64,000 bases of DNA from Burkholderiales bacterium (GCA_035549715.1 DASZQJ010000166.1:11544-75543); one strand, 5' to 3'. Numbered from the stretch's first letter, positions 28,942 to 51,288 are shown. Made by a program: numbers and translations. Notes: generated by a model not told the origin, from the sequence alone.

Positions 28942-28965
28942 CGTTATATCCAGTTGTATATTTCG
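28942..28965. promoter_or_regulatory. ModE-type operator (Mo-box) A
   Basis: CGTTATAT-ccagttgt-ATATTTCG matches 15/16 positions of CGnTATAT-N8-ATATAnCG. It overlaps a promoter-like TTGTTG(28933)/TATATT(28957) pair upstream of the TonB-dependent receptor gene. Confidence 0.6.
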
Positions 28966-28971
28966 ATATGT

Positions 28972-28995
28972 CGTTATGCATATCACGATACAACG
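28972..28995. promoter_or_regulatory. ModE-type operator (Mo-box) B, degenerate
   Basis: CGTTATGC-atatcacg-ATACAACG matches 13/16 positions. It lies 26 nt upstream of ATG 29021. Its right arm is identical to that of the box in front of modB. Confidence 0.4.
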
Positions 28996-29020
28996 AAGTT
29001 TCCAAGGGGGACCATTACAA

Positions 29021-31042: not shown

Positions 31043-31051
31043 GAGTCTCCC

Positions 31052-32362: not shown

Positions 32363-33723
32363 CATCCCGGGCGCGTGTCGCCCTCGCGGCCCTGTGCGCC
32401 GGCTGGGCCCTGGGGGCGATGGCAGAAGCACCTTCGGCCGCCGGCGGCAGTTCAACCATCCCCGATGCAACCCGCGAAGCTTTCGCCCAACCTTCGCCGG
32501 CCCTGCCGCGGCAACTGCGCGAATCCTTTTTCCTGGGCCGCAGCCTGTTCCGCCAGGTTTGGGTGGTCGCCCCCGCGATGGATCGCGACGTCTCCGGCCT
32601 CGGTCCGATCTTCAACCGGCCTTCCTGCGCGGCGTGCCACCTCAAGAACGGTCGCGGCCGGGCGCCTGACCATCCGGCAGAAAAAATGTCGACCATGCTC
32701 GTGCGCCTGAGCATACCCGGCATCGATGCACACGGCGGTCCGCTCCCCCATCCTGCCTACGGCGACCAGCTCAACGATTCCGCCAATCCCGGCATTGCCG
32801 CGGAAGGCCAGGCCCGGATCACATGGCAGGAACACTTGGAGACCTTGCCCGACGGCGAGCGGGTGTCCTTGCGCCGCCCGCTAGTGCGCTTCAGTGAGCT
32901 CGCCTATGGTCCGCTAGGCGAGGATGTCCTCGTGTCCCCCCGCATCGCGCCACCCGTCTTCGGGCTGGGACTGCTCGAAGCGGTACCGGAGTCGACCCTG
33001 CAAGAACTCGCTGCGCACAGTCAGGCGCTGGGCCTGGGGGGACGCCTCAATCGGGTCTGGGATCCTTCGCGCCGGGCGATGGTCGTCGGGCGATTCGGCT
33101 GGAAGGCGAACAGCGCCAGCCTGTTGACGCAAACTGCTGCGGCATTCCTGGGCGACCTAGGCATTACCTCGTCCCTGTTCCCGGACGAAAACTGCACGAT
33201 GGTGCAAGCCGCCTGCTCGGCGGCACCGTCCGCCGGAGCGCCCGAACTTTCGGATGCCCGGCTTGCCGTGACCATTCTGTACCAGCAATCGATCGCGGTG
33301 CCTGCGCGTCGCGACAGCGGTAACCCAAAGGTGGCGCGCGGAGAAAGGGCGTTCGCATCCGCCGGCTGCGTTGGCTGCCACGTGCCCGAACTGCTTACCG
33401 GCGGGCATCCCCTGCCGTTCCTGTCCGGCCAGCACATCCATCCCTACACCGACCTGCTGCTGCACGACATGGGCGAAGGCCTGGCCGACCATCGACCCGA
33501 TTTCCTCGCGAGCGGACGCGATTGGCGCACGCCGCCGCTGTGGGGCATCGGCCTGGGCGAGCACATCAACGGGCATCGCGCCTTCCTGCACGACGGCCGC
33601 GCCCGCACGTACGCGGAAGCCATCCTCTGGCATGACGGCGATGCCGGGCCTTCGCGCGAGGCCTTTCGTGCGATGGGCAAGGCCGACCGGGACGCGCTGC
33701 TGGAGTTCCTCGATTCGCTCTGA
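32359..33723 (+). CDS. di-haem cytochrome c-type oxidoreductase (DUF1111 family)
   Basis: 454-aa ORF with a signal peptide and two CxxCH haem motifs (CAACH, CVGCH), consistent in size and layout with DUF1111. Its ATG overlaps the stop of the binding-protein gene (ATGA). Confidence 0.75.
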   Translation: MTSRARVALAALCAGWALGAMAEAPSAAGGSSTIPDATREAFAQPSPALPRQLRESFFLGRSLFRQVWVVAPAMDRDVSGLGPIFNRPSCAACHLKNGRGRAPDHPAEKMSTMLVRLSIPGIDAHGGPLPHPAYGDQLNDSANPGIAAEGQARITWQEHLETLPDGERVSLRRPLVRFSELAYGPLGEDVLVSPRIAPPVFGLGLLEAVPESTLQELAAHSQALGLGGRLNRVWDPSRRAMVVGRFGWKANSASLLTQTAAAFLGDLGITSSLFPDENCTMVQAACSAAPSAGAPELSDARLAVTILYQQSIAVPARRDSGNPKVARGERAFASAGCVGCHVPELLTGGHPLPFLSGQHIHPYTDLLLHDMGEGLADHRPDFLASGRDWRTPPLWGIGLGEHINGHRAFLHDGRARTYAEAILWHDGDAGPSREAFRAMGKADRDALLEFLDSL

Positions 33724-36077: not shown

Positions 36078-39000
36078 TCAGTGCCGCGACGCGTCCGCAG
36101 CCAGAATGGCCGCGTCGCCGGCGAACTTGGGTTGGGGAACGCCGTGGCGGCGCAGGAGGCTGAACACCACGGGGACGAACAGCAGGGTCGCCACGGTCGC
36201 CAGGATCAGGCCGCCGATCACCGCGCGACCCAGCGGGGCGTTCTGCTCGCCGCCCTCGCCCAGGCCGCTGGCCATCGGCGCCATCCCGATGATCATCGCC
36301 GCGGCGGTCATCAGGACCGGACGCAGGCGCGTGGCGCCCGCTTCGAGCGCGGCTTCGATCGGGTCCCTGCCCTCGCGCAGCATCTCGTTGGCGAACGACA
36401 CCATCAGGATGCTGTTCGCCGTGGCCACGCCCACGCTCATGATCGCGCCCATCAGCGAGGGCACGCTGAAGCTCGTCCCGGTGAGGAAGAGCATCCAGAT
36501 GATGCCGCAGAAGGCGCCCGGCCGCGCCGTGATGATGATGAACGGGTCGGTCCAGGACTGGAAGTTGATCACCATGATGAAGTAGACGAGCAGCACCGCG
36601 GCGATCAGGCCGATGCCCATGCGGGTGAACGCGTCGTACATGCTCTCCGCCTGGCCGGAAATCTCGATCCGGGTGTTGTTCTTCTGTTCCTTCGCCCTGG
36701 GGATGAACTCGTCGACCACCTTGCGCACGTCCGCGGCGACCGCCCCGAGGTCCCTGCCCTGGACGTTCGCGTACACGTCGAACGCCAGCTCGGTGTTGAC
36801 GTGGTTGACGATGGCGGGCAGCTCCACGTGCTTGACCGTGGCGACGTTGCCCAGGGTCTGCGTCGGCGACTGGCCCTTGCCGGGCAGCGGGATGTTCAGG
36901 ATCGATTCCACGGAGTTGAGCGCGGTCTCGTGCGGCTGCACGACGACCACCTGGTACGGGCGACCCGTCTTCGGGTCGTTCCAGTAGTTGGGGGTGACCA
37001 CCACGCTCGAGGAGGAGGCGATGAGGAAGTTCTCGGCGATCTCGCGCTGCGTGAATCCGAACTGGGCGGCGCGCGTGCGATCGACTTCGACGCGCAACGC
37101 CGGGTGGTTCATCACCTGGTGCACGTGCACGTCCACGGCGCCCGGGATGCGCTTCATGCGCGCCTCGATCTCCTTGGCGAGGTGGAAGTTCCTGTAATCG
37201 CCGCCGATGATCTTGACGTCGATCGGCGCCGGCAACCCGAAGTTCAGGATCTGGTTCATCATGTCCCCGGGCTGGAAGTAGAAGCCGCATTCGGGAAATT
37301 TCTCGGGCAGGACCTGGCGCAGCTGGCGGATGTATTCCCGGGTCGCGACCTTGTGGTCCGGCTTCAAGGCCACCAGGATCTCCCCGTCGCCGGACGACAG
37401 CGTCACGTTGTCGCTGTATGCAAGGTTCGTGGAGGGGGGAATGCCGATGTTGTCGATGACCACGTCCAGGTCCTCCGCGGCGATGGTCCGGCGGATCTCG
37501 TCCTGCACGCGGGAGAAGATGCGCCCCGTGTCCTCGATGCGCGTACCCACCGGCGCGTTGACATGCAGCCGGATCTGGCCGGCATCGACCACGGGGAAGA
37601 ATTCCCAGCCGATGAAGAGCACGGCGCCCGCCGAGCCCAGGACCATGATGCCGAACAGCGCGAACACGACGACCCGGTGGGTCAGCGACCAGCGCAGCGC
37701 GCCGAGGTAGTTGCCGCGCAGGCGCTCGAAGTTGCGCTCCACGGCCGCATGGATGCGGGCGCCGACGCCCCGGCGCGCGCCCTCTTCCTCATGCTCGAGG
37801 AGCAGGTAGCGGGACATCACCGGCACCAGGGTGCGCGAGATCCCGTAGGACGCGAGGATCGAGAACACGACGGCCAGCGCCATCGGCGTGAAAAGGTACT
37901 TTGCCGCGCCCGTCAGGAGCAGCACGGGCAGGAACACGACGCAGATGCAAAGCATCGACACCAGCGCGGGCACGACGATCTGCTGCGAGCCGTCGAGGAT
38001 CGCGCGCGTCAGGCCCTTGCCCATCGACATGTGCCGGTGGATGTTCTCGATCGTCACCGTCGCGTCGTCGACCAGGATGCCGACGGCCAGCGCCAGGCCC
38101 CCGAGGGTCATGAGGTTCAGCGAGTAGCCCATGGCCGACAGCATGATGATCGAGAACAGGATGGCGAGCGGGATGGAGGTCACCACCACCAGCGTCGAGC
38201 GCCAGCTGCCCAGGAACAGCAGGATGAGCAGGCCGGTGAGCGCCGCCGCCATCAGGCCTTCGACCACCACGGCGTGCATGGCGTTGGCCACGAACACCGA
38301 CTGGTCGAACAGGAACGAGAGCTTCAGGCCCTCCGGGAGGGCAACGTTGGACAGCCGCTCGCGCACCGCGCGGATGATGTCCAGCGTCGAGGCGCCGCCG
38401 CTCTTGAGCACCGTGATCAGCGCCGATTTGCGGCCGTCATGGCGCACCAGGCTGGTCTGCTCGTTGTAGCCATCGCGCACGTCGGCCACGTCGTTGACGT
38501 AGACCATCGTGCCGTTGACGTTCTTGACGGGGAGCAGCCCCAGCTCGGCGATTTTCTCCGGGCTGTTGTTGATGCTCAGGATGTAGTCGCGCTCGCCGAT
38601 CTGCGTGAGGCCGGTCGGCAGGTTGACGTTCTGCCGGTTGAGCGCGTCGTTGATGTCCTTGACCGTGATCCCCTTGGCGTGCATGCGCACCGGGTCGGCG
38701 TCGATCATCACCAGGCGCGGGCGGCCGCCGTAGGGCAGCGGCACCGTCGCCCCGGGAACCGGCACCACTTCGTTTCGCACCAGCCACAGCCCCTGGTCGT
38801 AGAGCTGCTGCTCGCTCAGCGTGTCGCTGCCCAGCGCGATCTGCAGGATCGGCACGCTGGAAGCGTCGTACTGGACGATCTGCGGCGGCTGCTGCCCCGG
38901 CGGCATGCGCCGGATGATGGTCTGCGAGGTCGCGGTGATCTGGCTGACCGCCTGGTCGATCCGGACGTTGGGCTGGAAATAGATCCGGATGACGTTCTTG

Positions 39001-39263
39001 CTGTTGATCGTGTGGGATTCGATGCGGCGGATGTTGCTGACGGTCGTGCTGATCTGCTGCTCCGAGAAGATCGTGATCTGCTTCTCGAACGCGTCGGCGG
39101 GGATGCCCTGGTACTGCCAGATGAGCGTGACTATCGGCTCGGCGATCTCGGGGAAGATGTCCTTGGGCATGCGCAGGATCGACACGATGCCAAGCAGCAC
39201 CACGAGTAGCGCCACGACCACGAAGGTATAGGGCCGGCTCAGCGCCAGCCTGACGATCCACAA
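36078..39263 (-). CDS. RND efflux transporter permease (AcrB/HAE-type)
   Basis: 1061-aa ORF starting MWIVRLALSRPYTFVV. It has 12-TM RND topology with two large periplasmic loops and GILVDDATVTIENI in TM4. Confidence 0.9.
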   Translation of the reverse strand: MWIVRLALSRPYTFVVVALLVVLLGIVSILRMPKDIFPEIAEPIVTLIWQYQGIPADAFEKQITIFSEQQISTTVSNIRRIESHTINSKNVIRIYFQPNVRIDQAVSQITATSQTIIRRMPPGQQPPQIVQYDASSVPILQIALGSDTLSEQQLYDQGLWLVRNEVVPVPGATVPLPYGGRPRLVMIDADPVRMHAKGITVKDINDALNRQNVNLPTGLTQIGERDYILSINNSPEKIAELGLLPVKNVNGTMVYVNDVADVRDGYNEQTSLVRHDGRKSALITVLKSGGASTLDIIRAVRERLSNVALPEGLKLSFLFDQSVFVANAMHAVVVEGLMAAALTGLLILLFLGSWRSTLVVVTSIPLAILFSIIMLSAMGYSLNLMTLGGLALAVGILVDDATVTIENIHRHMSMGKGLTRAILDGSQQIVVPALVSMLCICVVFLPVLLLTGAAKYLFTPMALAVVFSILASYGISRTLVPVMSRYLLLEHEEEGARRGVGARIHAAVERNFERLRGNYLGALRWSLTHRVVVFALFGIMVLGSAGAVLFIGWEFFPVVDAGQIRLHVNAPVGTRIEDTGRIFSRVQDEIRRTIAAEDLDVVIDNIGIPPSTNLAYSDNVTLSSGDGEILVALKPDHKVATREYIRQLRQVLPEKFPECGFYFQPGDMMNQILNFGLPAPIDVKIIGGDYRNFHLAKEIEARMKRIPGAVDVHVHQVMNHPALRVEVDRTRAAQFGFTQREIAENFLIASSSSVVVTPNYWNDPKTGRPYQVVVVQPHETALNSVESILNIPLPGKGQSPTQTLGNVATVKHVELPAIVNHVNTELAFDVYANVQGRDLGAVAADVRKVVDEFIPRAKEQKNNTRIEISGQAESMYDAFTRMGIGLIAAVLLVYFIMVINFQSWTDPFIIITARPGAFCGIIWMLFLTGTSFSVPSLMGAIMSVGVATANSILMVSFANEMLREGRDPIEAALEAGATRLRPVLMTAAAMIIGMAPMASGLGEGGEQNAPLGRAVIGGLILATVATLLFVPVVFSLLRRHGVPQPKFAGDAAILAADASRH

Positions 39264-39351
39264 GGCCTCTTCCCCCTTATTTGTTGCAATTACATGACTT
39301 TAATGCTACAAGGTCGGCAAAACAGAATACAACAAAAAACCATTAATAATC

Positions 39352-39393
39352 ATATATTTCACGCTGACATTGATATTTCAGAGTGAAATATAT
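39352..39393. promoter_or_regulatory. perfect 11-bp inverted repeat ATATATTTCAC-N20-GTGAAATATAT in an AT-rich divergent control region
   Basis: Arms lie at 39352-39362 and 39383-39393. A third ATATTTCA copy sits in the spacer (39373-39380). The right arm overlaps a TATATT -10-like hexamer (39389-94), 42 nt upstream of the MFP start. Confidence 0.5.
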
Positions 39394-39434
39394 TGCGTTG
39401 CGAAACACCGGGATCCGAGCTCGAGGAGACTGAG

Positions 39435-40688
39435 ATGATTGGACGTCGAAACCGCCTTTATGCACAGCGCAGCAACCCCGTGCGCATGGCGGGCCGGGTA
39501 TCGGGAACGGGACTGATCGCCGGGCTCGTGCTGGTGCTCGCAGGCCTGTTCGCCATCGGCCTCTGGCCGAAATGGCACGCGCTGAAGACGGCGCAGGCGG
39601 AGGCCGGCAAGGATGACCTGCCGGCCGTGCTCTACGTCCCGGCCAAGCGCGGCAGCGCCAAAGCCGACATGACCCTGCCGGCCACGCTGTACGCGATGCA
39701 GGAAACCACGATCTACGCGCGCACCAACGGCTACCTCAAACGCTGGCTCGTCGACATCGGCGACAGCGTGAAGGCAGGCCAGGTGCTCGCCGAGATCGAG
39801 GCCCCGGAGCTCGACCGTGAACTGGACCAGGCACATGCGAGCCGCGCCCAGGTCAAGGCAAACCTCGACCTGGCGCGCGTGACGGCCGAGCGCTACGCAG
39901 CCCTGCTCAAGGAGGAAGCCGTCTCGCCCCAGGAAGTCGACGAGAAGCAGGGTTTGTACGCCGCCCGCAACGCGGACTACGCCGCCGCCGAAGCGAACCT
40001 GCGCCGCCTGGAGCAGATGAAGTCCTTCCAGCGCGTCGTGGCCCCGTTCTCCGGCACCATCACGGCGCGCAACGTCGAAGTGGGCTCGCTCATCCAGGCG
40101 GGCAGCGCTTCCGCCTCCGGGTGGCTGTTCAAGCTGGCGCAGACGGATACCATCCGCGTCCACGCCGCCGTGCCCCAGAGCAGCATGCGCCTGGTCAAGC
40201 CGGGCATGACGGTGGACCTCGTGGTGCCCGAGCTCGGCGACCAGGCCTTTGCCGCCAAGGTCATGCGCAATGCAGGCGCCTTCGACGCGGCCACGCGCAC
40301 GATGATCGTGGAAATGCACGTCCCCAACCGGGGCGGGCCGCTGCTGCCGGGCATGTATGCGCAAGCCCGGTTGAAGCTCGTCAACCCCGAGCCCAGCATC
40401 CAGATTCCGATCAACGCCCTGATGGTCGGCGGCGAAGGCGCGCGCGTTGCCACCGTGGATCCGAATGGCGTGGTGCAGATCAAGCCCGTGAAGGTCGGGC
40501 GCGACCTGGGCAAGGAGGTCGAGATCGTCGCGGGCCTGGATGAGAACGAGCGCGTCATCAACAACCCCCGCGACAGCCTCGCCAACGGCACGAAGGTGCG
40601 GGCGACGGAAATGCAGGCGCACAACGACAAGAAAGACGCGCCGAAGCCCGCCGGCACGCCGGCGGCGACGGACAAACCCAAGTCCTGA
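39435..40688 (+). CDS. efflux RND periplasmic adaptor (membrane fusion protein)
   Basis: ATG 39435 is preceded by GAGGAG. The product has a TM anchor, a biotinyl/lipoyl-like motif (IYARTNGYLKRWLVDIGDSVKAGQVLAEIEAPE), a coiled coil and a beta-barrel. Confidence 0.9.
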   Translation: MIGRRNRLYAQRSNPVRMAGRVSGTGLIAGLVLVLAGLFAIGLWPKWHALKTAQAEAGKDDLPAVLYVPAKRGSAKADMTLPATLYAMQETTIYARTNGYLKRWLVDIGDSVKAGQVLAEIEAPELDRELDQAHASRAQVKANLDLARVTAERYAALLKEEAVSPQEVDEKQGLYAARNADYAAAEANLRRLEQMKSFQRVVAPFSGTITARNVEVGSLIQAGSASASGWLFKLAQTDTIRVHAAVPQSSMRLVKPGMTVDLVVPELGDQAFAAKVMRNAGAFDAATRTMIVEMHVPNRGGPLLPGMYAQARLKLVNPEPSIQIPINALMVGGEGARVATVDPNGVVQIKPVKVGRDLGKEVEIVAGLDENERVINNPRDSLANGTKVRATEMQAHNDKKDAPKPAGTPAATDKPKS

Positions 40689-40692
40689 TCCC

Positions 40693-42135
40693 ATGAGCGC
40701 ATTCCGCCTGCTGCCGCTGGTTGCGGCACTTGCCTGCGGCTGCATGCAGGCCGGGAAGGACTACGTCCGTCCCGCCGCCACGCCCAACGCCGCCTACGTC
40801 GAGGCTGGTCCCTGGAAGCAGGCCGCGCCGGCGGACGCCATCGCCCGCGCCAACTGGTGGGAGATATTCCAGGATCCCGTGCTGAACAAGCTGGAGGAGG
40901 ATGCGCGCAGCGCGAGCCCGCGCCTGCAAGCCGCCGCCGCCCGCGTCGACCAGGCCCGGGCGATCCTGGGCTTTGCCGGCGCCAGCCGCATGCCCACGGT
41001 GGACCTGGTGCCGGAGGCCGCCCGGTACCAGGTGTCGGGCAACCGGCCCGACCAGCCGGAAAAGGTGCCCGGCAACCACGAGTACGCGACGAGCCGGTTC
41101 CGGTTGCCGCTCTACGCCGCCTACGAGATCGACATGTGGGGCAAGCTGTCGCGCCAGATCGAGTCAGCGGATCGGCGGATGGAAGCCAGCATCGCCGCCT
41201 ATCATTCGGTGCTGCTGACCCTGCAGGCGGACGTTGCCCAGGTCTATTTCCAGTTGCGGGCTGCGGACGAGGAAGCGGCGCTGCTCGCGCGCAGCATCGA
41301 GTTACGCGAGCGGGCGCGGGACCTCGTCGCCGCACGCAAGCGCGGCGGCCTCGCCAGCGAACTCGATCTGGCCAAGGTCGAGACGGAGGTGGCCATCACG
41401 GAGGCGGAGGCGCGCGCCGCGGAACGCCGTCGCAACGAGCTGCAGCATGCCCTCGCAGTACTGGTCGGCACCCTGCCCGGACGCCTGAACCTCGAGCCTG
41501 CGTCGGCGGGCGTGCCGCCACCCGCGATCCCGGTGGGCCTGCCGGCCGACCTCCTGGAACGCCGCCCGGACGTGGCGCAAGCCGAACGCCTGCTGGCTGC
41601 TCGCAACGCGGAGCTCGGCATCGCCCAGGCCGCCTGGTTCCCTTCCATCCGCCTGACCGCGGGCCTGGGCTTCGAGAGCGCGGAACTGTCCGACCTGCTC
41701 GACCGCGACAGCCGCATCTGGGCGCTCGGCACCTCGCTCGTGCAGCCCATTTTCGACGGGGGCCGCATCCGCGCCAACGAAGATCGCGCCCGCGCGCTGT
41801 ATGCCGAGAGCCTGGCGGACTACCGCGAGCGCCTGCTCGTGGCCTTCAAGGAGGTCGAGACTTCGCTCGCCGCGCTGCGGATCCTGGACCGCCAGCACGA
41901 AAGCCAGTTGCGCGCGGTGACTTCGGCGGAGCGCGCCGAGCAGCTCGCGACGTCGCGCTACAAGACGGGACTCACCAACGTGCTGGAGCTCGTCGATGCG
42001 CAGCGCACCCGCCTGCAGGTCGAACGCGTGCGCCTCCAGGTGCGCCAGCAGCAGATGCTGGCGAGCGTCACGCTGATCCGGGCGCTCGGCGGCGGCTGGG
42101 CCGAACGGGGCGAACCCGTGGCGGCCCTGCGCTAG
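40693..42135 (+). CDS. NodT-family outer-membrane efflux lipoprotein
   Basis: ATG 40693 (MSAFRLLPLVAALACGC lipobox). Typical OMF repeats are present (WWEIFQDPVLNKL, RPDVAQAERLLAA, LGGGW). Confidence 0.9.
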   Translation: MSAFRLLPLVAALACGCMQAGKDYVRPAATPNAAYVEAGPWKQAAPADAIARANWWEIFQDPVLNKLEEDARSASPRLQAAAARVDQARAILGFAGASRMPTVDLVPEAARYQVSGNRPDQPEKVPGNHEYATSRFRLPLYAAYEIDMWGKLSRQIESADRRMEASIAAYHSVLLTLQADVAQVYFQLRAADEEAALLARSIELRERARDLVAARKRGGLASELDLAKVETEVAITEAEARAAERRRNELQHALAVLVGTLPGRLNLEPASAGVPPPAIPVGLPADLLERRPDVAQAERLLAARNAELGIAQAAWFPSIRLTAGLGFESAELSDLLDRDSRIWALGTSLVQPIFDGGRIRANEDRARALYAESLADYRERLLVAFKEVETSLAALRILDRQHESQLRAVTSAERAEQLATSRYKTGLTNVLELVDAQRTRLQVERVRLQVRQQQMLASVTLIRALGGGWAERGEPVAALR

Positions 42136-42139
42136 TCAC

Positions 42140-42157
42140 CCGGGCAACGAAGCCCGG
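42140..42157. terminator. short hairpin between convergent OMF and modA genes
   Basis: CCGGGC-aacgaa-GCCCGG forms a 6-bp stem with no T-tract. It is the only structure in the 30-nt convergent gap. Confidence 0.3.
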
Positions 42158-42165
42158 AACGCCGC

Positions 42166-42921
42166 TCACGGCTTGAGGAAGCCGTACTTCTGCAGGATCT
42201 GCGACCCCGCCGTCGCACGCACGAATGCCACGAAGGCCGCGGCGGCCGCCGCCTGGCTGCTGTCCTGGATGACCGCGATCGGGTACAGCACGGGGCTGGC
42301 CGTGGGGACCTCGAGGGCCACCTTCACCTTTTCCGGCATCAGGGCGGCGTCCGTGCGATAGACAAACGCGGCGTCGACTTCACCGCGCGCAACGTAGTCC
42401 AGGCTCTGCCGGACGTTCTGCGTGTTGATGACCTTGTCCTTCACGGGCTCCCACAAACCCTGCTCCATGAGCACCGATCTGCTGTAGCGCCCGACCGGCA
42501 CGCTGTCCGGATTGCCGATGGCCACCCTGCGGAACCTGTCCCCGGTGAGCTCGGCCAGGCTCCCGATCCCGGGACTCTCGCCGCCCGGGATGACGAGCAC
42601 GAGTACATTGCGAGCGAAATCGGCCCGGGAACCGGGTCGCAGCAGGCCCTGCTGCTGCGCGCGGTCCATCGTTTCCTGGTCGGCGGCAGCGAACACGTCC
42701 ACCGGTGCGCCCCTGGCGATCTGCTGCAGGAGCTGCCCCGAGCCGCCAAAGTTGAATGCCACTTTCGTGCCGGGATGGGCGCGCTCGAATTCACGTCCGA
42801 TGTCGGTGAATGCGTTGGTCAGGCTGGCCGCGGCGGAAACCACCAGATCCGCCGCCGCGGCGCCGGCCCACGCCTGCATGGCCACGACCAGGAAGACCCA
42901 CCTTGTCACTGCATTGCGCAT
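42166..42921 (-). CDS. modA: molybdate ABC transporter substrate-binding protein
   Basis: 251-aa ORF with a signal peptide and the ModA pattern (LVVSAAASLTNAF, FNFGGSGQLLQQI, VPVGRY). Confidence 0.9.
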   Translation of the reverse strand: MRNAVTRWVFLVVAMQAWAGAAAADLVVSAAASLTNAFTDIGREFERAHPGTKVAFNFGGSGQLLQQIARGAPVDVFAAADQETMDRAQQQGLLRPGSRADFARNVLVLVIPGGESPGIGSLAELTGDRFRRVAIGNPDSVPVGRYSRSVLMEQGLWEPVKDKVINTQNVRQSLDYVARGEVDAAFVYRTDAALMPEKVKVALEVPTASPVLYPIAVIQDSSQAAAAAAFVAFVRATAGSQILQKYGFLKP

Positions 42922-42963
42922 TGCCGTGCTCCTTGTCTCGGGTCCGGACGCATGGCCGGCACG

Positions 42964-44676
42964 TCAGAACCGGAAGCGGAAACCGGTACCCGCCGTGAAG
43001 ATGTCGTGGATGTAGACCGCCGTCGGCGTGGAGTCGAATGCCGGCCCCTTGTAGTGCGTGAAGATCAGCCCGCCGTACAGGGTGGTCCCCTTGTACAGCC
43101 GGTACGTGGCGAGGCCGGACCAGCCATCGATGGACCCACCCTTGTATCGGGTGGGATAAACCCCGCCCACCGGCGTGCCGGAGCCGTAGGACGGCAATCC
43201 GACGTAGACATAGCCCACGCTCAGGTTGGTCTTCTCCGTTAGGTCGTAGTCGAAGCCCAGGTGCCCGGTGTACAGCTCGGTATCTTCGCCGACGTACGCC
43301 GTGGACTTGTTCACGTCCTCGCCGTAAAGGTTGTTGATGAAGGGAATGTTGGGATCCGGCGTCGGCTCGCTCAGCACGGCGTACTGGCCGCCGAACTGGG
43401 TATGCAGCGCGTCGGTCAGCTTGTACTTGAACACCAGCAGCGCGGCCCGCTGGTCGTAGGCGACCAGGTTGATGACGTTGTTCACCGCGGCATCGGTGCC
43501 CGTCTTCAGCAGGTCGGAAAACTCCTCGTAGACCGCCTGCACGCCGAAGCGATCGGTCTCGTAGCCGATGTTGGCCGCAAAGCCCTGGGCCCCCTTCTTC
43601 AGGCCCCCGGTGCCGCCGAATCCGTACAGCAAGCCGAAATTGACGTTGCCGACCTTGTGCCTGTACTTGATGCTGCTGTCGACGCGGGCATTCTCCGACA
43701 GCGACCCGCCGCCACCGTATACGCCGTTGCCATAGGGCGAGAACAATCCTGATTTCTGGTTCGGCGCGTAGCCGTTGAGCACGTCGAGGATGAAGTTGGT
43801 GTTGCGGCCGAACGAGATCCGGCCCCAGTCGTCGCCGGAGAAGCCGCCGATGGCTTCCTTGGCGAATAGCTGGCCGTTGAGCGAACTCGTCGCATAGGCC
43901 GTGGTCGGGTACCTGGAGTTCACGGCCTGGTTGTGCGACTGGTCGGTGAGCTGGCCGGTGGCCGGGTTGAAGGCCGAATCGAGCAGCGCGAACACCTTCA
44001 GGCCGCCCGCCCCGATGTCCCGGCTGGCCCGGATGCCCCAGGACGAGGTCGACAGCGCGCTGTTGAACATTCCCGTCTGGCTCGACATGTTGGACGCGGG
44101 ATAGGGCACCTGGCTGCCCCCGGGGCCGGTCGGCGTGGTGCGCGGGTATCGCACGCCTCCGGAAATCCAGGGGCCGATGGACGTGGGCATCTCGCCGCTC
44201 TGGACCAGGGAATGGCTGGTATAGCCCACCGCGAGATCGATGGTGCCGAACAGTTCGACCTTGGTCCGGTCGGTGCTGATGATGGCCACGCCGTCCTCCT
44301 GCTTTCCGGCGGCCGCACCGGCGGGCGCCCCAGGGGACGCCGCGGACGCTTCCGGCGAGGGGTTCGAAGCCTTCGCCGCCGCAGCCGGCGCCTGTGCCGG
44401 TTCGGGGCCGGACGGCGCCACGGGTGCGGCAACCGGCGCCGGGCCTGCTGTGGCGCCCGGCGATTGCTTCGCTTCTGCGGCATCCGTCGTTGCCGACATG
44501 AACTCGTCGTACTCCTCCTGGGTGATGATGCCCTTCTTCAGCTGCAGGTCCAGCAGGCGCTTGATGGCATCCTCGGCCGTTCCCGCAAACGTCGTCGTGC
44601 AGGCCACGCCGAGCGCCGCCGCCATCGCAAGCTTCCCGAGTCTGCCTCCCCAGCCTTTCGTTGCAGCTGCATTCAT
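42964..44676 (-). CDS. Gram-negative porin with SHOCT-like N-terminal segment and Ala/Pro-rich linker
   Basis: ORF 42964..44721; ATG 44676 has an AAGGGA RBS. After the signal peptide comes AEDAIKRLLDLQLKKGIITQEEYDEFM, then about 90 aa of A/P/S-rich linker. The barrel then starts typically (VELFGTIDLAVGYTSH) and ends ...TAGTGFRFRF. Confidence 0.8.
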   Translation of the reverse strand: MNAAATKGWGGRLGKLAMAAALGVACTTTFAGTAEDAIKRLLDLQLKKGIITQEEYDEFMSATTDAAEAKQSPGATAGPAPVAAPVAPSGPEPAQAPAAAAKASNPSPEASAASPGAPAGAAAGKQEDGVAIISTDRTKVELFGTIDLAVGYTSHSLVQSGEMPTSIGPWISGGVRYPRTTPTGPGGSQVPYPASNMSSQTGMFNSALSTSSWGIRASRDIGAGGLKVFALLDSAFNPATGQLTDQSHNQAVNSRYPTTAYATSSLNGQLFAKEAIGGFSGDDWGRISFGRNTNFILDVLNGYAPNQKSGLFSPYGNGVYGGGGSLSENARVDSSIKYRHKVGNVNFGLLYGFGGTGGLKKGAQGFAANIGYETDRFGVQAVYEEFSDLLKTGTDAAVNNVINLVAYDQRAALLVFKYKLTDALHTQFGGQYAVLSEPTPDPNIPFINNLYGEDVNKSTAYVGEDTELYTGHLGFDYDLTEKTNLSVGYVYVGLPSYGSGTPVGGVYPTRYKGGSIDGWSGLATYRLYKGTTLYGGLIFTHYKGPAFDSTPTAVYIHDIFTAGTGFRFRF

Positions 44677-44689
44677 GGTCAAGTCCCTT

Positions 44690-44713
44690 CGTGATGTTCT
44701 TGTAGATACAACG
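44690..44713. promoter_or_regulatory. degenerate ModE-type box C (modC-porin intergenic)
   Basis: CGTGATGT-tcttgtag-ATACAACG matches 13/16 positions. Its right arm is identical to those of boxes B and D. Confidence 0.3.
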
Positions 44714-44728
44714 ACGCGCAAAAAAATG

Positions 44729-45538
44729 TCACTTCACCAGCTGCATGGGCGCCCGCGCGCGCGCCGCGCCAATCTCCCGGTGGGCGTCCGTGAGCAGGCC
44801 GCGGATCGCCTCCTGGCGCGCCCGCCCCTGCTCGTCGCGATACGGCAGCCCCTTCAGGTCCGTGACGCGCTCCACCCTGCCGTGCTCCAGGATCACCAAT
44901 GTCTGGGCGAGCGCCGAGACGTCCTCGGGATCATGGGTGATCACCAGCATGGGTACCTTGAAGGCTTCGCGCGTGCGCAGCAGCTCGTCGCGCATCCGGT
45001 CCCTGAGCAGGGGATCGAGCGCGGCGAAAGGCTCGTCGAGCAGCAGCACTGCCGGCCGGCGGATCAGCGCGCGCGCCAGCGCCACCCGCTGCTTCTGCCC
45101 CCCCGAGAGCTGCCAGGGCCGCGCCCCGCCCAACCCGCGCAGCTCGAACACTTCCATGAGCTCGTCGACGCGCCGCAGGAGTTCGGCGGAATGCCTTCGC
45201 TGCCACCAGTGGCGCACTCCGAAGCCGATGTTCTGCGCCACGGTGAGGTGGGGGAACAGCGCATAGTCCTGGAACAGGTAGGCGACCCCGCGCTCGCGCG
45301 CCGGGACGTCGACGCCGGTCGAGGAGTCGAACAGCACCCGCCCCGCCACGGCGATGCGACCGCGCTCGGGCGTCTCCAGTCCGGCAATGGCCTTCAGGGT
45401 GACGCTCTTGCCGGCGCCGGAGGGGCCGAAGATCACGCCGCGTTCGTCGTCGCACGTGAACCTCACGTCGAGCGGGAACTCGCGCCCGCTCGAGCGCAGC
45501 GTCTTGTGGATGTCGACCTCGATGTGCACCGGGTTCAT
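44729..45538 (-). CDS. modC: molybdate ABC transporter ATP-binding protein (short form, no TOBE domain)
   Basis: The last 269 aa of ORF 44729..46279 start at ATG 45538. Walker A (GPSGAGKS), the signature (LSGGQKQR) and Walker B (LLLDEP) are present. The ATG overlaps the modB stop. The C-terminal 45 aa or so are too short for a TOBE/Mop domain. Confidence 0.85.
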   Translation of the reverse strand: MNPVHIEVDIHKTLRSSGREFPLDVRFTCDDERGVIFGPSGAGKSVTLKAIAGLETPERGRIAVAGRVLFDSSTGVDVPARERGVAYLFQDYALFPHLTVAQNIGFGVRHWWQRRHSAELLRRVDELMEVFELRGLGGARPWQLSGGQKQRVALARALIRRPAVLLLDEPFAALDPLLRDRMRDELLRTREAFKVPMLVITHDPEDVSALAQTLVILEHGRVERVTDLKGLPYRDEQGRARQEAIRGLLTDAHREIGAARARAPMQLVK

Positions 45539-46209
45539 CCTTGTGCGGCCGGCCGCAACAGCCGTCCCGAAGCGAGCAGCACTGCGATGCAGACGGCGGA
45601 GGTCACGATGACCAGGAAATTGGCGACATCGTCCCGCCCCGCCTGGACGGCCTCGTAGACGGCGATGGACAGCGTCTGTGTCTTTCCCGGCAGGCTTCCC
45701 GCCACCATGAGGGTCGCGCCGAATTCGCCCATTGCGCGCGCGAAGGCGAGCATCATGCCCGCCAGGATGCCGCGCCAGGCAAGCGGCAGCGTCACCTGGA
45801 GGAACACGGCGGTTTCCGATTTGCCCAGGATGCGGGCGGCCTGCTCGTACTGCCGCTCCACGCCTTCGAACGCCGCGCGCGCCGCTTTGTAGACGAGGGG
45901 AAAAGCCACGACGGCCGCGGCGATGGCCGCGCCCTGCCAGGTAAACACGAGCGAGATGCCGAAGGTCGACTCCAGCCAGGCGCCGATCGGGCCCCGCCGG
46001 CCGACCAGGACCAGAAGGTAGTAGCCCAGCACGGTGGGGGGCATCACCATTGGCAGGGTCATCATGGCGTCCAGGACTTCCCGGCCGGGAAAACGCAGGC
46101 GCGCCAGGGCGAAGGCCACCAGCACGCCCGCCACGGTGGCGCCGAAGGTGGCCCAGCCCGCGACTTTCAGGGTGAGCAGGAGGGGAACGAGGACTTCCTG
46201 GGACGACAC
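45535..46209 (-). CDS. modB: molybdate ABC transporter permease
   Basis: ORF 45535..46263. I prefer GTG 46209 because the ORF-track ATG 46263 would place the ModE box at 46223-46246 inside the gene. The EAA-type loop is ARILGKSETAVFLQVTLPLA. Confidence 0.85.
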   Translation of the reverse strand: MSSQEVLVPLLLTLKVAGWATFGATVAGVLVAFALARLRFPGREVLDAMMTLPMVMPPTVLGYYLLVLVGRRGPIGAWLESTFGISLVFTWQGAAIAAAVVAFPLVYKAARAAFEGVERQYEQAARILGKSETAVFLQVTLPLAWRGILAGMMLAFARAMGEFGATLMVAGSLPGKTQTLSIAVYEAVQAGRDDVANFLVIVTSAVCIAVLLASGRLLRPAAQG

Positions 46210-46222
46210 GGCCGCAACCCAT

Positions 46223-46246
46223 CGATGTATACGAATTGATACAACG
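46223..46246. promoter_or_regulatory. ModE-type operator (Mo-box) D in front of modB
   Basis: CGATGTAT-acgaattg-ATACAACG matches 14/16 positions, and both mismatches are the symmetric TAYAT variant. It lies just downstream of a minus-strand TTGACG-N17-TAGCCT promoter-like pair and 14 nt upstream of GTG 46209. Confidence 0.6.
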
Positions 46247-46372
46247 CGGAAGGCTATCGGCAATACCGGCCTGCGTCAAGAAATCAACCGCCTGGCCCGG
46301 GAGCGGTCCGGGAAGATGTCCCCGAGGGGGCGTGAACCCGTTGGGTTCGCGGAGTCGTCGCCCGATAAAGCG

Positions 46373-47041
46373 TCAGGCGGGGAAAACCGCCGCCACCGGC
46401 CGGACCGGCTCCGGCATCCCCCTGCCCTCGCGGAGTTCGGCTTCGCGCCGGACCTGGGCCCGCTTGAGCGCCAGCAGGTTCTTGCAGATGCGCACGTTGC
46501 CCTCGATCAGGCCACGGGAGGGATCGATGCGGGTCATTCCGTACTTCTGCGGCCCCTGCCCGCGCTGCGCCCACTTGCCCGAGCGGCGCCAGGCTTGCAC
46601 CCACTGCGACAGGGTCAGCGACCAGGCGATGTCCTTGCGCTTGGCATTGGTCCGGTGCTGCAGATAGACCCGACGCTCCTCGTCGGTCGCTTCCCGGAAT
46701 TCGAGCAGCGTGCAGCCATAGACGCGCTCCCAAGCCGGCTTGACCTTGCGGGGACGGCCCGCCGACTGCCGGCGCACCGCCAGCCCGGCATTGGTCTTGT
46801 CCAGGCCATAGCGGCGGGCGATCTTGCGCACCCCTTCCACGCTGAGGCTCAGCGATTCGCCGATTGAAGTCAGCGTTTCGCCGGAGAGGTATCGGCTGCA
46901 GATGGCGGCGTCTCGCGACCCCGCCTCCGGCAGCCCGGCGGCGACCGGAGTCGCCGGGGCGAACCGCCCCCGGCCACCCTGGGCCGTCTCGAAAGCCGGC
47001 ATTGCGTCCGGCGGCAATTCCGCCGCCCGGTCGCTCCTCAT
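46373..47041 (-). CDS. hypothetical protein with HTH segment and degenerate HNH-like C-terminal region
   Basis: 222-aa ORF whose ATG overlaps the stop of the upstream beta-propeller gene (ATGA). The HTH-like stretch is ICSRYLSGETLTSIGESLSLSVEGVRKIARRYGL. The C-terminal YGMTRIDPSRGLIEGNVRIC resembles the DRID..GY..GNV motif of His-Me finger proteins but lacks the Cys/His ligands. Confidence 0.55.
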   Translation of the reverse strand: MRSDRAAELPPDAMPAFETAQGGRGRFAPATPVAAGLPEAGSRDAAICSRYLSGETLTSIGESLSLSVEGVRKIARRYGLDKTNAGLAVRRQSAGRPRKVKPAWERVYGCTLLEFREATDEERRVYLQHRTNAKRKDIAWSLTLSQWVQAWRRSGKWAQRGQGPQKYGMTRIDPSRGLIEGNVRICKNLLALKRAQVRREAELREGRGMPEPVRPVAAVFPA

Positions 47042-48213
47042 GGCTTGTCGAAGCCCTTCGGCAGGTGCACCACCGTGACGGTGTTGTCCTTGTAGTTGGG
47101 CGACGTGGCCGCCAGCTCGGGGATCACCAGCAGGTAACTGCCGTCACCTTGCTTGCGCACCGCAACGTCGGCCGGGCCGGCCAGCTTGATGTCCTGGTCG
47201 TACGTCAGCGTGTAGGCCTTGCCGGCGGCCGTGGTCACGATCACCGAATTGGTGTTCTTGATCTCGGTATCGATGCGCACATTGCCCGCGAAGTCCAGGC
47301 CGTCGAGCGCGCCGAAGCCCTTGCCGAACGGCGCCGGCAACTTGCCGTTTTCGATGTCCGCCTTCGTGACCTTGTACTGGCCGCCTTCCGCCGGGTCCTT
47401 CATGCCGGCCGCCACGCCCACGGTGTTGAAGTGGATCATGCCGTCCGGGCCGACTTCGATGCCGTCCGGGCCGCCATCCGGCACGGCCAGGTACGAGACT
47501 CTGGCATCCTTGCCTTCGGCGAGGTCGTCGATCGCGTTCTTCGGGAACAGGTAGATGCCGCCGCCCTTGGTGGCGATCGGTGGATCGAACGTGCCGCCGG
47601 CAACACCCGTGTCGGCGAGGTACAAATTACCCGCCTTGTCGAAGGCCAGCGCGTTGGAAAGCGTCGCGGGCACGCCAGCGGCCTTGTAGGCGGCGGAACC
47701 TTCGCCCAGCTTGATCTCGCCCAGCACGTAGCCATCCTCGTTGAAGGCCAGGATCTTAGGATCGTGGTCGGCCTTGTCCTTGACCGGGGCGCCGTCGGGG
47801 TTGGCGCCCGGGGCGTCGGCCAGCGCGACAAAGATCGTGCCCTTGGGGAAGCGCTTGGTCGCCGTGTGGCTCACGGCCATGCCCAAAGGGCCGGTGAGAC
47901 CGATGACCAGCTTCTCGTTGACCATCTTCAGCGTGCCGTCGGATTGCACTTCGAGCTTGCTGATGTAGCCCGACTTGTGGGTCCAGTTGAAGCCGATGTT
48001 GGGGTTCCCCAGCTCGGCGGAATTGGTGATGAAGACGTGCTTGCCGTCGGCGCTGAAGATCGCGCCTTCCGGATTGTCGAAAACGCTGAGTCGCTGGATG
48101 ACTTGTCCCTTGACCGGGTAGTCTGGGCTTTGGGCCATGGCAGTGGTCACCCCGGCTGCCATCAGCAGCGCGCCGAGCAAGGTCAGTGCCGGGACGCGGG
48201 AAGTTCTGGTCAT
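47038..48213 (-). CDS. secreted beta-propeller protein (SMP-30/gluconolactonase/NHL-like)
   Basis: 391-aa ORF with a signal peptide (MTRTSRVPALTLLGALLMAAGVTTAMA). Blade-like motifs repeat (AIFSADGKHVFITN, GMAVSH, ALAFDKAGNLYLADTG, PDGIEVGPDGMIHF). A GAGGAG RBS is present and a perfect ModE box lies 48 nt upstream. Confidence 0.75.
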   Translation of the reverse strand: MTRTSRVPALTLLGALLMAAGVTTAMAQSPDYPVKGQVIQRLSVFDNPEGAIFSADGKHVFITNSAELGNPNIGFNWTHKSGYISKLEVQSDGTLKMVNEKLVIGLTGPLGMAVSHTATKRFPKGTIFVALADAPGANPDGAPVKDKADHDPKILAFNEDGYVLGEIKLGEGSAAYKAAGVPATLSNALAFDKAGNLYLADTGVAGGTFDPPIATKGGGIYLFPKNAIDDLAEGKDARVSYLAVPDGGPDGIEVGPDGMIHFNTVGVAAGMKDPAEGGQYKVTKADIENGKLPAPFGKGFGALDGLDFAGNVRIDTEIKNTNSVIVTTAAGKAYTLTYDQDIKLAGPADVAVRKQGDGSYLLVIPELAATSPNYKDNTVTVVHLPKGFDKP

Positions 48214-48260: not shown

Positions 48261-48284
48261 CGTTATATTTCTATGGATATAACG
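48261..48284. promoter_or_regulatory. ModE-type operator (Mo-box) E, perfect
   Basis: CGTTATAT-ttctatgg-ATATAACG matches 16/16 positions and is a perfect palindrome. It lies upstream of the beta-propeller gene. Confidence 0.75.
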
Positions 48285-48443: not shown

Positions 48444-48477
48444 GCCGTCGCTATATTCTCTTGGATATAGCGACGGC
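48444..48477. promoter_or_regulatory. ModE-type operator (Mo-box) F, perfect with extended 13-bp arms
   Basis: GCCGTCGCTATAT-tctcttgg-ATATAGCGACGGC. The core CGCTATAT-N8-ATATAGCG matches 16/16 positions. It lies 85 nt downstream of the modE stop and is overlapped by a minus-strand TTGACG (48482..48477). Confidence 0.75.
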
Positions 48478-48561: not shown

Positions 48562-48936
48562 CTAGCGGGGCTCGACCATCAGGTCAGCGAAATCCTCGAG
48601 TTCGCGCGCCACGCTGGCGGTGGCCTTGGCTTCCATGCGCTGGTAACGCGCCAGGATTTCCTTGCCGAACTCGGTCACCCGAGCCCCGCCCCCGCGGCTG
48701 CCGCCGGTGGCGGTCTCGACCAGGGGCGTGCGGAAACACTGGTTCATGGTGTCGACGAGCAGCCAGGCCCGCCGGTACGACATGTCCATCTGGCGGGCCG
48801 CGGCGGAGATGGAGCCGGTCGATTCGATGGCTTTGAGGAGGTCGGCCTTGCCCGGCCCCATGGCGATGGCCTTGCGAAACATGATCCGGATCTGCGGCCG
48901 CGGGCGTGACGAGGATTTTGGCTTCGCCGCCGCCAT
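48562..48936 (-). CDS. modE: ModE-family regulator, DNA-binding domain only (no Mop/TOBE domains)
   Basis: ATG 48936 lies 2 nt after the moaE stop and gives 124 aa. GKADLLKAIESTGSISAAARQMDMSYRRAWLLVDTMNQCFRTPLVETATGGSRGGGARVTEFGKEIL aligns closely with my recollection of the E. coli ModE N-domain (SLLKHIALSGSISQGAKDAGISYKSAWDAINEMNQ...ATGGKGGGGAVLTRYG). Confidence 0.8.
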   Translation of the reverse strand: MAAAKPKSSSRPRPQIRIMFRKAIAMGPGKADLLKAIESTGSISAAARQMDMSYRRAWLLVDTMNQCFRTPLVETATGGSRGGGARVTEFGKEILARYQRMEAKATASVARELEDFADLMVEPR

Positions 48937-50289: not shown

Positions 50290-50640
50290 ATGAAACGACT
50301 CGTTGCAATCGTCGCCGGCGCCGCCGCGCTGTGCGCCCTCCCGGCTGCCGCCCACCACGGCTGGAGCAGCTACGAGAACGACAAGCCGCTCACCGTGACC
50401 GGCACCATCGTGCAGTCCGAGTACAGCTACCCGCACGCGACGATCCGGCTCGAGGCCGATGGCAAGACCTGGCTGGCGGTGCTGGCACCTCCCTCGCGCA
50501 TGTCCGCCCGCGGGCTCTCCAGCGCCGATCTCAAGGCCGGCGTCCAGGCGACGGTCGAAGGCTACCCGAGCCGCAACGACGCGGCTGAACTGCGCGCGGA
50601 GCGGATCATCATCGGCGGAAAACCCACCGAGCTGCGCTGA
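50290..50640 (+). CDS. small exported protein with predicted mature N-terminus His-His (DUF6152-like, from memory)
   Basis: 116-aa ORF. After the signal peptide MKRLVAIVAGAAALCALPAAA comes HHGWSSYENDKPLTVTGTIVQSEYSYPHATIRL. Confidence 0.55.
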   Translation: MKRLVAIVAGAAALCALPAAAHHGWSSYENDKPLTVTGTIVQSEYSYPHATIRLEADGKTWLAVLAPPSRMSARGLSSADLKAGVQATVEGYPSRNDAAELRAERIIIGGKPTELR

Positions 50641-51143
50641 TGTCCCCCGCCGGCACCCCTCCCGGCGGCCAGCTGCTGCAGGCACTGGAGCACGGCGGCA
50701 TCGGCGAGGCGATGCGCAATTCCATCTGGCTCTACCCGGCGGTGGAGACCCTGCACATCGTCGGTTTCATCCTGCTGGTGGGCGCAGTGCTCATGTTCGA
50801 CCTGCGGGTGCTGGGCCTGTCTCGGCGCGTACCGGTGCGCATGCTCGCCGGGCACCTGCTGCCCTGGGGAGCGGCGGCGCTGGTGCTGATCGTGCCGGCG
50901 GGGCTGCTGCTGTTCGCGGCCGATGCCACCGCGATGGTCGGGAACCGGGCGTTCGTCCTCAAGATGATCCTGCTCATGGCCGCGGCCACCAACGCCGCAG
51001 CCTTCCACCTCGGGCCATTCCGCTCGGTCACCGCCTGGGATCAGGGCATCACCGCCCCGCTCTCGGCCCGACTGCATGCCGGCGCCTCGCTGGTGCTCTG
51101 GCTGGCGATCATCGCTTGCGGTCGCATGATCGCCTACGCCTGA
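50640..51143 (+). CDS. four-helix integral membrane protein, unknown function
   Basis: 167-aa ORF whose ATG overlaps the stop of the preceding gene. Four hydrophobic helices are present (e.g. HIVGFILLVGAVLMF, AAALVLIVPAGLLLF). Confidence 0.55.
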   Translation: MSPAGTPPGGQLLQALEHGGIGEAMRNSIWLYPAVETLHIVGFILLVGAVLMFDLRVLGLSRRVPVRMLAGHLLPWGAAALVLIVPAGLLLFAADATAMVGNRAFVLKMILLMAAATNAAAFHLGPFRSVTAWDQGITAPLSARLHAGASLVLWLAIIACGRMIAYA

Positions 51144-51288
51144 CCCGCCTGGCCTTGTATAACCCCTTGCCGAGAATGCCTTTTCCGGCTCCCCCGCGCT
51201 ATTCTCATTGAAATATAATGGGCTTGCGCCAGCGGCGGCGCGAGACCCATCAAAACAACGAGCCGCAAGCTCGAAAACCAAGGACACG

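Follow-up and report, generated by a model that had tools for sequence, protein, structure and literature searches.

In a 64,000-nt stretch of DNA from a Burkholderiales bacterium (GCA_035549715.1 DASZQJ010000166.1:11544-75543; the whole stretch is referred to here as the window), we examined a molybdate transport cluster in which the gene for a 570-aa predicted porin lies between modC, encoding the ATPase subunit of the importer, and modA, encoding the periplasmic molybdate-binding protein. We consider it fairly probable that this porin is controlled by ModE, is induced by molybdenum starvation and feeds ModA, the cluster being made up of a modBC unit and a porin-modA unit. Its co-regulation with the importer and its role in the molybdenum regulon are well supported at the level of sequence, and we infer that molybdate is transported through the pore. 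The porin is a candidate, and the first good one that we found, for a dedicated outer-membrane entry route for molybdate, its selectivity being a prediction only.

Gene order of the mod cluster

The genes follow each other on the minus strand as modB-modC-porin-modA (Table 1), an order that the original prediction, made from the sequence of the window, had rightly called unusual and had given with correct coordinates and distances. Alignment to the N-termini of homologues indicates GTG 46209 (MSSQEVL...) as the most likely start of modB, the open reading frame itself reaching TTG 46263, and the modC start codon (ATG, 45538) shares the bases ATGA with the modB stop codon TGA. Equivalog cut-offs for ModA, ModB and ModC were taken from NCBIfam. 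ModC scored 194.6 bits against TIGR02142, below the cut-off of 285, the match being confined to model positions 7-218 of 353; a TOBE domain is therefore absent, as had been proposed from its length of 269 aa. A ModC of this kind has a precedent in the solved molybdate/tungstate ModC 2onk_A (240 aa), and this TOBE-less structure, together with the ATGA coupling to modB, supports the assignment of the gene as a short modC. The spacers measure 52 nt between modC and the porin gene and 42 nt between the porin gene and modA, the latter with an AAGGAG ribosome-binding site. A terminator scan of positions 41900-46500 revealed no terminator-like site in either spacer, and an Rfam search of the whole window, molybdenum cofactor (Moco) riboswitch included, gave no match.

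Operator boxes and promoter-like pairs

Two ModE-type operator boxes accompany these genes: box 1 lies 14 nt before the modB start, and box 2 lies in the modC-porin spacer, 13 nt before the porin ATG, where it abuts the ribosome-binding site. Both are inverted repeats in the CGnTATATA-N6-TATATAnCG frame, and box 1 fits the frame of the E. coli ModE consensus, ATCGnTATATA-N6-TATATAnCGAT (PMC545781). The boxes were scored with a matrix trained on 12 sites from loci L001-L006, the window and the metagenome loci standing outside the training set, and reached 30.8 bits (box 2) and 26.4 bits (box 1). The second box had been described as degenerate, which is contradicted by its score, higher than that of box 1, and by its conservation in every related locus. 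The chance expectation, from 200 Markov-1 simulations of the window, was a mean of 0.02 matches of at least 15 bits and none at 20 bits, and 500 kb of unrelated loci around distant porin homologues yielded one match of at least 20 bits.

Both boxes occur at the same positions in L001-L006, and conservation of the boxes extends to more than 20 loci. All six syntenic genome loci and 17 of the 17 metagenome loci (23-33 bits) have a box directly 5' of the porin gene, the metagenome loci having stayed outside the training set. More divergent arrangements also carry the element: in L009 the porin gene and modBC are each preceded by a box, in L049 a box of 29.7 bits lies between the porin gene and modE, and in L008 a ModE-like repeat, its spacer longer by one base, was overlooked by the fixed-length matrix.

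Box 1 begins 4 nt after the -10 element of a promoter-like pair (P1). The original prediction had pointed out both this box and the pair TTGACG-N17-TAGCCT ahead of modB, and both are confirmed; the motif TTGACG-N17-TA[GC][CG]CT was found 4-10 nt before box 1 in 16 loci. A generic sigma-70 scan of positions 41900-46500 gave no promoter at its thresholds, and P1 is supported because it is conserved in those 16 loci, not by its consensus score. A candidate internal promoter (P2) overlaps box 2 in a fixed register, its -35 element 'TTnnCn' starting 8 nt before the box and being followed by a 17-nt spacer. Several related loci show 8-9 of 12 consensus matches for P2 (for example TTGCCT-N17-TATATT and TTGCCA-N17-TATATC), and in most loci the end of modC and an A6-T4 tract lie ahead of box 2.

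Since box 2 lies directly 5' of the porin ribosome-binding site and is combined with this fixed-register pair, porin-modA probably has a ModE-repressible promoter of its own, or, at the minimum, a roadblock formed by ModE. Instead of one 'operon' there are thus probably two co-regulated units, modBC and porin-modA. Of the earlier proposal that the porin is co-expressed with the importer from one operon, the association stands, given the adjacency of modA in 16 of 19 loci and the conserved operator, and the single simple operon probably does not, an internal promoter being likely. We infer from these sequences that ModE binds the boxes and represses there.

Conservation of the porin-modA pair

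The genome scan yielded 12 loci with members of the porin subfamily, and the metagenome scan added 17 further loci. The order modB-modC-porin-modA was found in six genome loci (L001-L006), usually downstream of mobB-moaD-moaE-modE, the modE consisting of the helix-turn-helix (HTH) part, and with the gene for an RND outer-membrane factor converging after modA, as in the window. In the metagenome loci, modC lies immediately upstream of the porin gene in 15 of 17, and modA follows the porin gene directly in all seven that have downstream sequence. The synteny survey suggested by the original prediction thus demonstrates an arrangement that is not strain-specific, with 6 genome loci and 15 of 17 metagenome loci in the same order.

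Across all informative loci the porin gene is followed by modA in 16 of 19, in four gene layouts. In L009 the porin-modA pair stands about 4 kb from modBC, which is on the opposite strand; in L008 a full-length modE (HTH and two TOBE domains) is divergent from porin-modA-mop-modB-modC, where ModC, at 365 aa, is long enough for a TOBE domain; and in L011 a full-length modE is divergent from porin-modA. The ModA proteins of L008 and L011 are 28% identical to that of the window and still above the TIGR01256 cut-off, representing a second ModA lineage. Furthermore, in L049, from the Holophagaceae (Acidobacteria), a 29%-identical porin homologue is divergent from modE-modA-modB-modC. As judged from these gene neighbourhoods, the stable unit is porin-modA, and the link to molybdenum belongs to the subfamily, not to all relatives. 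The molybdenum linkage of the distant relatives is weak, and the claim is therefore limited to the subfamily with at least 49% identity and to L049.

A looser association was seen in Gallionella-type genomes (L060 = L024, L028, L034, L043, L046), where a 30-33% identical porin without the N-terminal module described below is located near a moa/mob cluster. In L060 the porin gene is divergent from moaA-moeB-moaC-moaD-moaE-mobB-mobA, and in L024/L060, L034 and L043 a gene for a regulator with a ModE-type HTH joined to a PBP_like domain (PF12727) is also close by. The Gallionella-type loci yielded no ModE box of the E. coli type.

Fold and parts of the porin

The window protein had no porin-family match in Pfam at E-values up to 10, nor in NCBIfam. 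Its homologues form 60 clusters with 49-89% identity, from metagenomes or from metagenome-assembled genomes of Burkholderiales/Betaproteobacteria, and the named ones are labelled 'porin' or 'predicted porin'; three further relatives with 31-33% identity carry Pfam Porin_4. Precomputed PF13609 (Porin_4) matches exist for the subfamily members P0004, P0049 and P0050 and for the roughly 30%-identical relatives P0061-P0063. When the family profile was searched against the PDB, the sole match was a weak one to the anion-selective Omp32 of Delftia (Comamonas) acidovorans (E=0.0026).

An AlphaFold2 model of the monomer, computed from an alignment of 61 sequences, has 16 long strands, with a mean predicted local distance difference test (pLDDT) value of 71.9 and values of 84-96 over most of the barrel. 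Foldseek searches of the PDB with this model returned BpsOmp38 (8jto, 1.1e-18) and Omp32 (1e54, 3.1e-17), then weaker matches to PorB, OmpT and OmpF; target-normalised TM-scores for the top matches (Omp38, Omp32, PorB) were 0.71-0.79. Because of these structural neighbours, the signal peptide and the C-terminal end in FRFRF (...GFRFRF), the protein is assigned, on the predicted structure, as a divergent member of the general-porin superfamily with a 16-strand barrel, outside the OprP/OprO family. The description of the 570-aa product as a porin is thereby upheld by the predicted structure and the weak Omp32 profile match, and not by the family models. Membership of the OprP/OprO family was rejected, there being no PF07396 match and the structural neighbours being general porins. 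The likeness to OprP/OprO that the original prediction had proposed checking by structure prediction did not emerge: the barrel has the general-porin fold, and no Arg/Lys ladder was evident from a crude strand-parity count of lumen-facing residues.

The conservation of each segment was expressed as majority identity across 58 subfamily members (Table 1). The barrel is about 110 residues larger than those of classical porins, mainly through loops L1 (55 aa), L2 (36 aa) and L3 (37 aa), and no other part of the protein is as well conserved as these loops (85-90%, the strands having 72-83%). General porins usually show the reverse pattern, with loops less conserved than strands. The higher conservation of L1-L3 argues for a constrained, specialised pore.

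Between the signal peptide and an Ala/Pro-rich linker lies a SHOCT-like helical module (AEDAIKRLLDLQLKKGIITQEEYDEFM, residues 34-62), for which the SHOCT matches (PF09851/PF20612) are below the cut-off (E=0.059 and 0.21). The motif DP[IV]KRLLDLQLKKGIITQ[EQ]EYDEFM of this module is also found at the N-terminus of two porins of the OprO/P family (PF07396), P0064 and P0089. A word-indexed search with the 40-residue module returned a single fragment, whereas an exhaustive search revealed a widespread SHOCT-like repeat, including SHOCT repeat proteins (P0072, P0074) and P0065 (precomputed PF09851); apart from its occurrence on two OprO/P porins, the module is therefore a poor guide to function. It could serve to oligomerise the protein, to anchor it to the cell wall or to recruit a partner. 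A related motif was noted on a small OMP_b-brl protein adjoining the porin gene in L007 (9004-9858), and the module looks like a transferable periplasmic part of outer-membrane proteins in this lineage.

Regulator and molybdate sensing

The modE-like gene of the window begins 2 nt after the moaE stop codon and encodes the N-terminal HTH domain only. From its sequence, this 124-aa homologue likely binds the boxes. A tblastn search found no TOBE or Mop domain in the 64-kb window. The occurrence of an HTH-only ModE and a TOBE-less ModC alongside classical ModE boxes raises the question of how molybdenum is sensed. A TOBE-like open reading frame follows modA in L061, and in L008 a mop gene lies between modA and modB.

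Proposed route of molybdate and competing explanations

When molybdate is scarce, the ModE-type repressor (HTH only, encoded just upstream) would leave the operators, P1 would drive modBC, and the porin gene and modA would be driven by the internal promoter under box 2 or by read-through from P1. The 16-strand porin would then insert into the outer membrane and let more molybdate, and probably also more of the similar anion tungstate, into the periplasm, where the co-expressed ModA would capture the anion and hand it over to ModBC. A promoter for the abundant porin and ModA separate from that of modBC would permit different expression levels. The porin would have a role in the molybdenum regulon like that of PhoE (E. 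coli) or OprP (Pseudomonas) in the phosphate regulon.

Several observations weigh against this reading. The local ModE is without a molybdate-binding domain; P2 is weak in the window, with 5-6 of 12 consensus matches, and read-through from P1 may also supply the pair; and all relatives come from uncultured organisms. Molybdate is small enough for general porins, and a dedicated channel is not strictly required. The charges of the pore give no hint of anion selectivity: the crude strand-parity count gives about 14 Lys/Arg against about 12 Asp/Glu facing the lumen, without anion bias, and the barrel as a whole is about neutral (32 Lys+Arg against 35 Asp+Glu). In the alignment with the Arg cluster of Omp32, R38 corresponds to Ser, R75 to K273 (Lys or Arg in the family) and R133 to the invariant R331. 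Finally, three subfamily loci have no mod neighbours (L007, L012 of the Oxalobacteraceae, and L010), and most of the roughly 30%-identical homologues occur in no molybdenum-related context.

These unlinked relatives, the unbiased lumen and the OmpF/Omp38/PorB-type fold also speak for a distinctly unlikely explanation, in which a general diffusion porin, with no special part in molybdate uptake, happens to lie beside mod genes in a single lineage and the box is there for modA, not for the porin gene. The adjacency to modA, however, is kept through four layouts and two ModA lineages and recurs in Acidobacteria, the operator is 5' of the porin gene and not between it and modA, and conservation is higher in the surface loops than in the strands; a molybdenum repressor over a housekeeping porin would also make little sense. 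The loops have a further bearing on the view, which we regard as doubtful, that the protein is a substrate-specific channel with a molybdate/tungstate site in L1-L3 and a SHOCT-like tether that recruits ModA or anchors the trimer, giving a direct relay. The length of these loops and their conservation speak for such a channel; the 88%-conserved N-terminal module is common to two anion porins of the OprO/P family, and the pairing with modA is strict. ModA binds molybdate via hydrogen bonds, not charges, and the missing charge bias is on that account no bar; one may speculate, by analogy, that the Ser/Thr/Asn/Gln/Gly-rich loops form a ModA-like hydrogen-bonding oxyanion site. Yet the model is least reliable in the loops (pLDDT below 50 for residues 159-172, 244-268 and 316-328), the SHOCT-like motif is a widespread repeat in unrelated proteins, and the molybdenum-linked homologue of L049 is without the N-terminal module.

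It is very improbable that the porin carries another cargo under molybdenum limitation, such as vanadate, sulfate or a small metallophore complex, or serves export, with molybdate entering elsewhere. The window does hold a TonB-dependent receptor operon behind ModE-type boxes (28942-28995) that would offer another outer-membrane route, possibly for chelated molybdenum. The invariant partner of the porin is nonetheless ModA, a molybdate/tungstate-binding protein by TIGR01256, and the syntenic loci contain no metallophore biosynthesis genes or other binding-protein genes paired with the porin gene. The reading that we prefer remains that of a ModE-controlled porin feeding ModA.

Neighbouring genes

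The strongest ModE-type box in the window stands 48 nt before the gene of a secreted 391-aa protein, with a weaker box further upstream. The protein had no match in Pfam or NCBIfam, and its AlphaFold2 model (pLDDT 90) resembles DFPase/NHL-like beta-propellers in Foldseek searches. The insertion of this gene, with boxes at the same positions, is shared by L003, L006 and L074, while homologues elsewhere (L078, L079) are in unrelated contexts and have no boxes; the molybdenum link of the 391-aa gene is therefore clade-specific. The gene is followed by one for a 222-aa protein to which no function was assigned (46373-47041, minus strand).

On the plus strand, further boxes precede the TonB-dependent receptor gene and the genes for a solute-binding protein and a di-haem oxidoreductase. 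As judged from its upstream sequence, this operon (28942-33723) may provide another molybdenum-regulated way across the outer membrane, perhaps one for chelated molybdenum.

A further ModE-like box (CGCTATTCTCATTGAAATATAATG, 51197-51220, plus strand), weak at 15 bits or more, precedes the probable start of moaA (ATG 51289) by about 70 nt and recalls the ModE control of moaA in E. coli. Between mobB and moaA is a DUF6152/DUF6644 gene pair (50290-51143, plus strand); a DUF6152 gene also adjoins a TonB-dependent receptor gene in L078 (14252-14641). Beside the cluster (36078-42135), an RND efflux system comprises a pump (36078-39263, minus strand), a membrane-fusion protein (39393-40688, plus strand) and an outer-membrane factor ending at 42135 (plus strand). 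The outer-membrane factor gene converges on modA and has the same position in L001, L004-L006, L061-L064 and L067, and lies at a greater distance downstream in L002; synteny of the neighbourhood thus reaches beyond the mod genes.

Table 1. Coordinates of the mod cluster, the segments of the porin gene and other features of the window, counted from its first nucleotide
Feature	Position	Strand	Details
modB, molybdate ABC transporter permease	45535-46209	-	224 aa from GTG 46209; TIGR02141 235.4 bits, cut-off 182.6
modC, ATPase subunit	44729-45538	-	269 aa; nucleotide-binding domain and ~40-aa tail; PF00005 E=4.5e-30
Porin gene	42964-44676	-	570 aa; ATG 44676, stop 42964; AAGGGA ribosome-binding site
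Porin signal peptide, residues 1-33	44578-44676	-	Cleavage predicted after FAG (AxA in homologues); 37% majority identity
SHOCT-like helical module, residues 34-62	44491-44577	-	AEDAIKRLLDLQLKKGIITQEEYDEFMSA; predicted periplasmic; 88% identity; helices pLDDT 82-87
Ala/Pro-rich low-complexity linker, residues 63-127	44296-44490	-	Disordered, pLDDT <50; 38% identity; variable length among homologues
Porin barrel, residues 128-570 and stop	42964-44295	-	16 strands (predicted); 57-90% majority identity by segment
modA, periplasmic molybdate-binding protein	42166-42921	-	251 aa, signal peptide; TIGR01256 196 bits, cut-off 62.5; PF13531 E=1.7e-60
ModE-type operator box 1	46223-46246	-	CGTTGTATCAATTCGTATACATCG; 24-nt inverted repeat
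ModE-type operator box 2	44690-44713	-	CGTTGTATCTACAAGAACATCACG; in 52-nt spacer
Promoter-like pair P1	46251-46279	-	TTGACG (46279-46274), 17-nt spacer, TAGCCT (46256-46251)
Candidate internal promoter P2	44691-44721	-	TTGCGC (44721-44716), 17-nt spacer, -10 within right half of box 2
modE-like regulator, HTH N-domain only	48562-48936	-	124 aa; TIGR00637 90 bits; PF00126
Strongest ModE-type box in window	48261-48284	-	36.0 bits
Weaker ModE-type box	48449-48472	-	23.1 bits
Secreted 391-aa protein	47038-48213	-	DFPase/NHL-like beta-propeller (predicted)
ModE-type box upstream of TonB-dependent receptor	28942-28965	+	31.0 bits; overlapping weaker boxes to 28995
TonB-dependent receptor	29021-31042	+	Plug and barrel domains; directly downstream of boxes
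Solute-binding protein	31052-32362	+	SBP_bac_6; phnS2-like
Di-haem oxidoreductase	32359-33723	+	PF06537

Relation to known systems

A close parallel to the porin as proposed here is PhoE of E. coli, which likewise has the 16-strand general-porin fold, belongs by its gene to the regulon of one anionic nutrient and is induced with a binding protein and an ABC importer; structures of the OmpF family, to which PhoE is homologous, were returned by Foldseek. The phoE gene, however, is unlinked to the pst genes, whereas the porin gene lies between modC and modA behind its own operator, and the porin differs further in a barrel about 110 residues larger, long conserved loops, a SHOCT-like module with linker and the lack of a Pfam porin match. 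With OprP and OprO of P. aeruginosa, which are specific for phosphate and pyrophosphate (PF07396), it would share the concept of a starvation-induced oxyanion channel serving a high-affinity importer; the family and fold class are different, and only the N-terminal module is common to two PF07396 porins. Among solved structures, Omp32 of D. acidovorans and BpsOmp38 of Burkholderia pseudomallei come closest, at an identity of only 15-18%, but these are constitutive major porins of about 330 residues that have no N-terminal extension and are not linked to mod genes.

The cluster resembles E. coli modABC with ModE in its ModA, ModB and ModC orthologues and in a ModE-type operator just after the promoter -10, and differs in the order (modBC, then porin-modA), the second operator, a ModC without the TOBE domain (trans-inhibition) and a ModE without a Mop/TOBE sensor. 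In Desulfovibrio, modA and modBC are described as separate units that each have a ModE site, and hypothetical porins regulated by Fur have also been described (PMC545781). The ModA-IcmP route of the type VI secretion system of P. aeruginosa is cited as an outer-membrane step for molybdate (PMC11734730, PMC8602904) and is the only specific step of this kind found in the searchable literature. There, a secreted binding protein docks on an outer-membrane protein, whereas here no type VI secretion genes are present and ModA has an ordinary signal peptide. A molybdate-specific porin, or a porin in a ModE regulon, was not found in the full-text library searched, which omits most subscription journals. 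Regulon-specific porins are already known; here the regulon would be that of molybdenum, and the porin comes from a divergent subfamily of general porins whose N-terminal module is unusual.

The passage of molybdate across the outer membrane is usually left unaddressed, and diffusion through general porins is assumed. A porin paired with modA and provided with its own ModE operator is a concrete candidate for this missing step in an uncultured Burkholderiales clade, with a distant homologue linked to mod genes in Acidobacteria. The principle known from PhoE and OprP, in which the regulon of a scarce anion has a porin of its own, would then also apply to a trace metal. In the bolder version of the proposal, which we put forward only tentatively and think unlikely, the subfamily would be a dedicated molybdate/tungstate channel, with a binding site in L1-L3 and a tether that places ModA under the pore, and would constitute the first described outer-membrane-to-importer relay for molybdenum. 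If that were true, the organism would possess two molybdenum-regulated outer-membrane routes, one for the free anion through the porin and one for chelated molybdenum through the TonB-dependent receptor. Such routes would matter, since nitrogen fixation and nitrate reduction can be limited by the supply of molybdenum.

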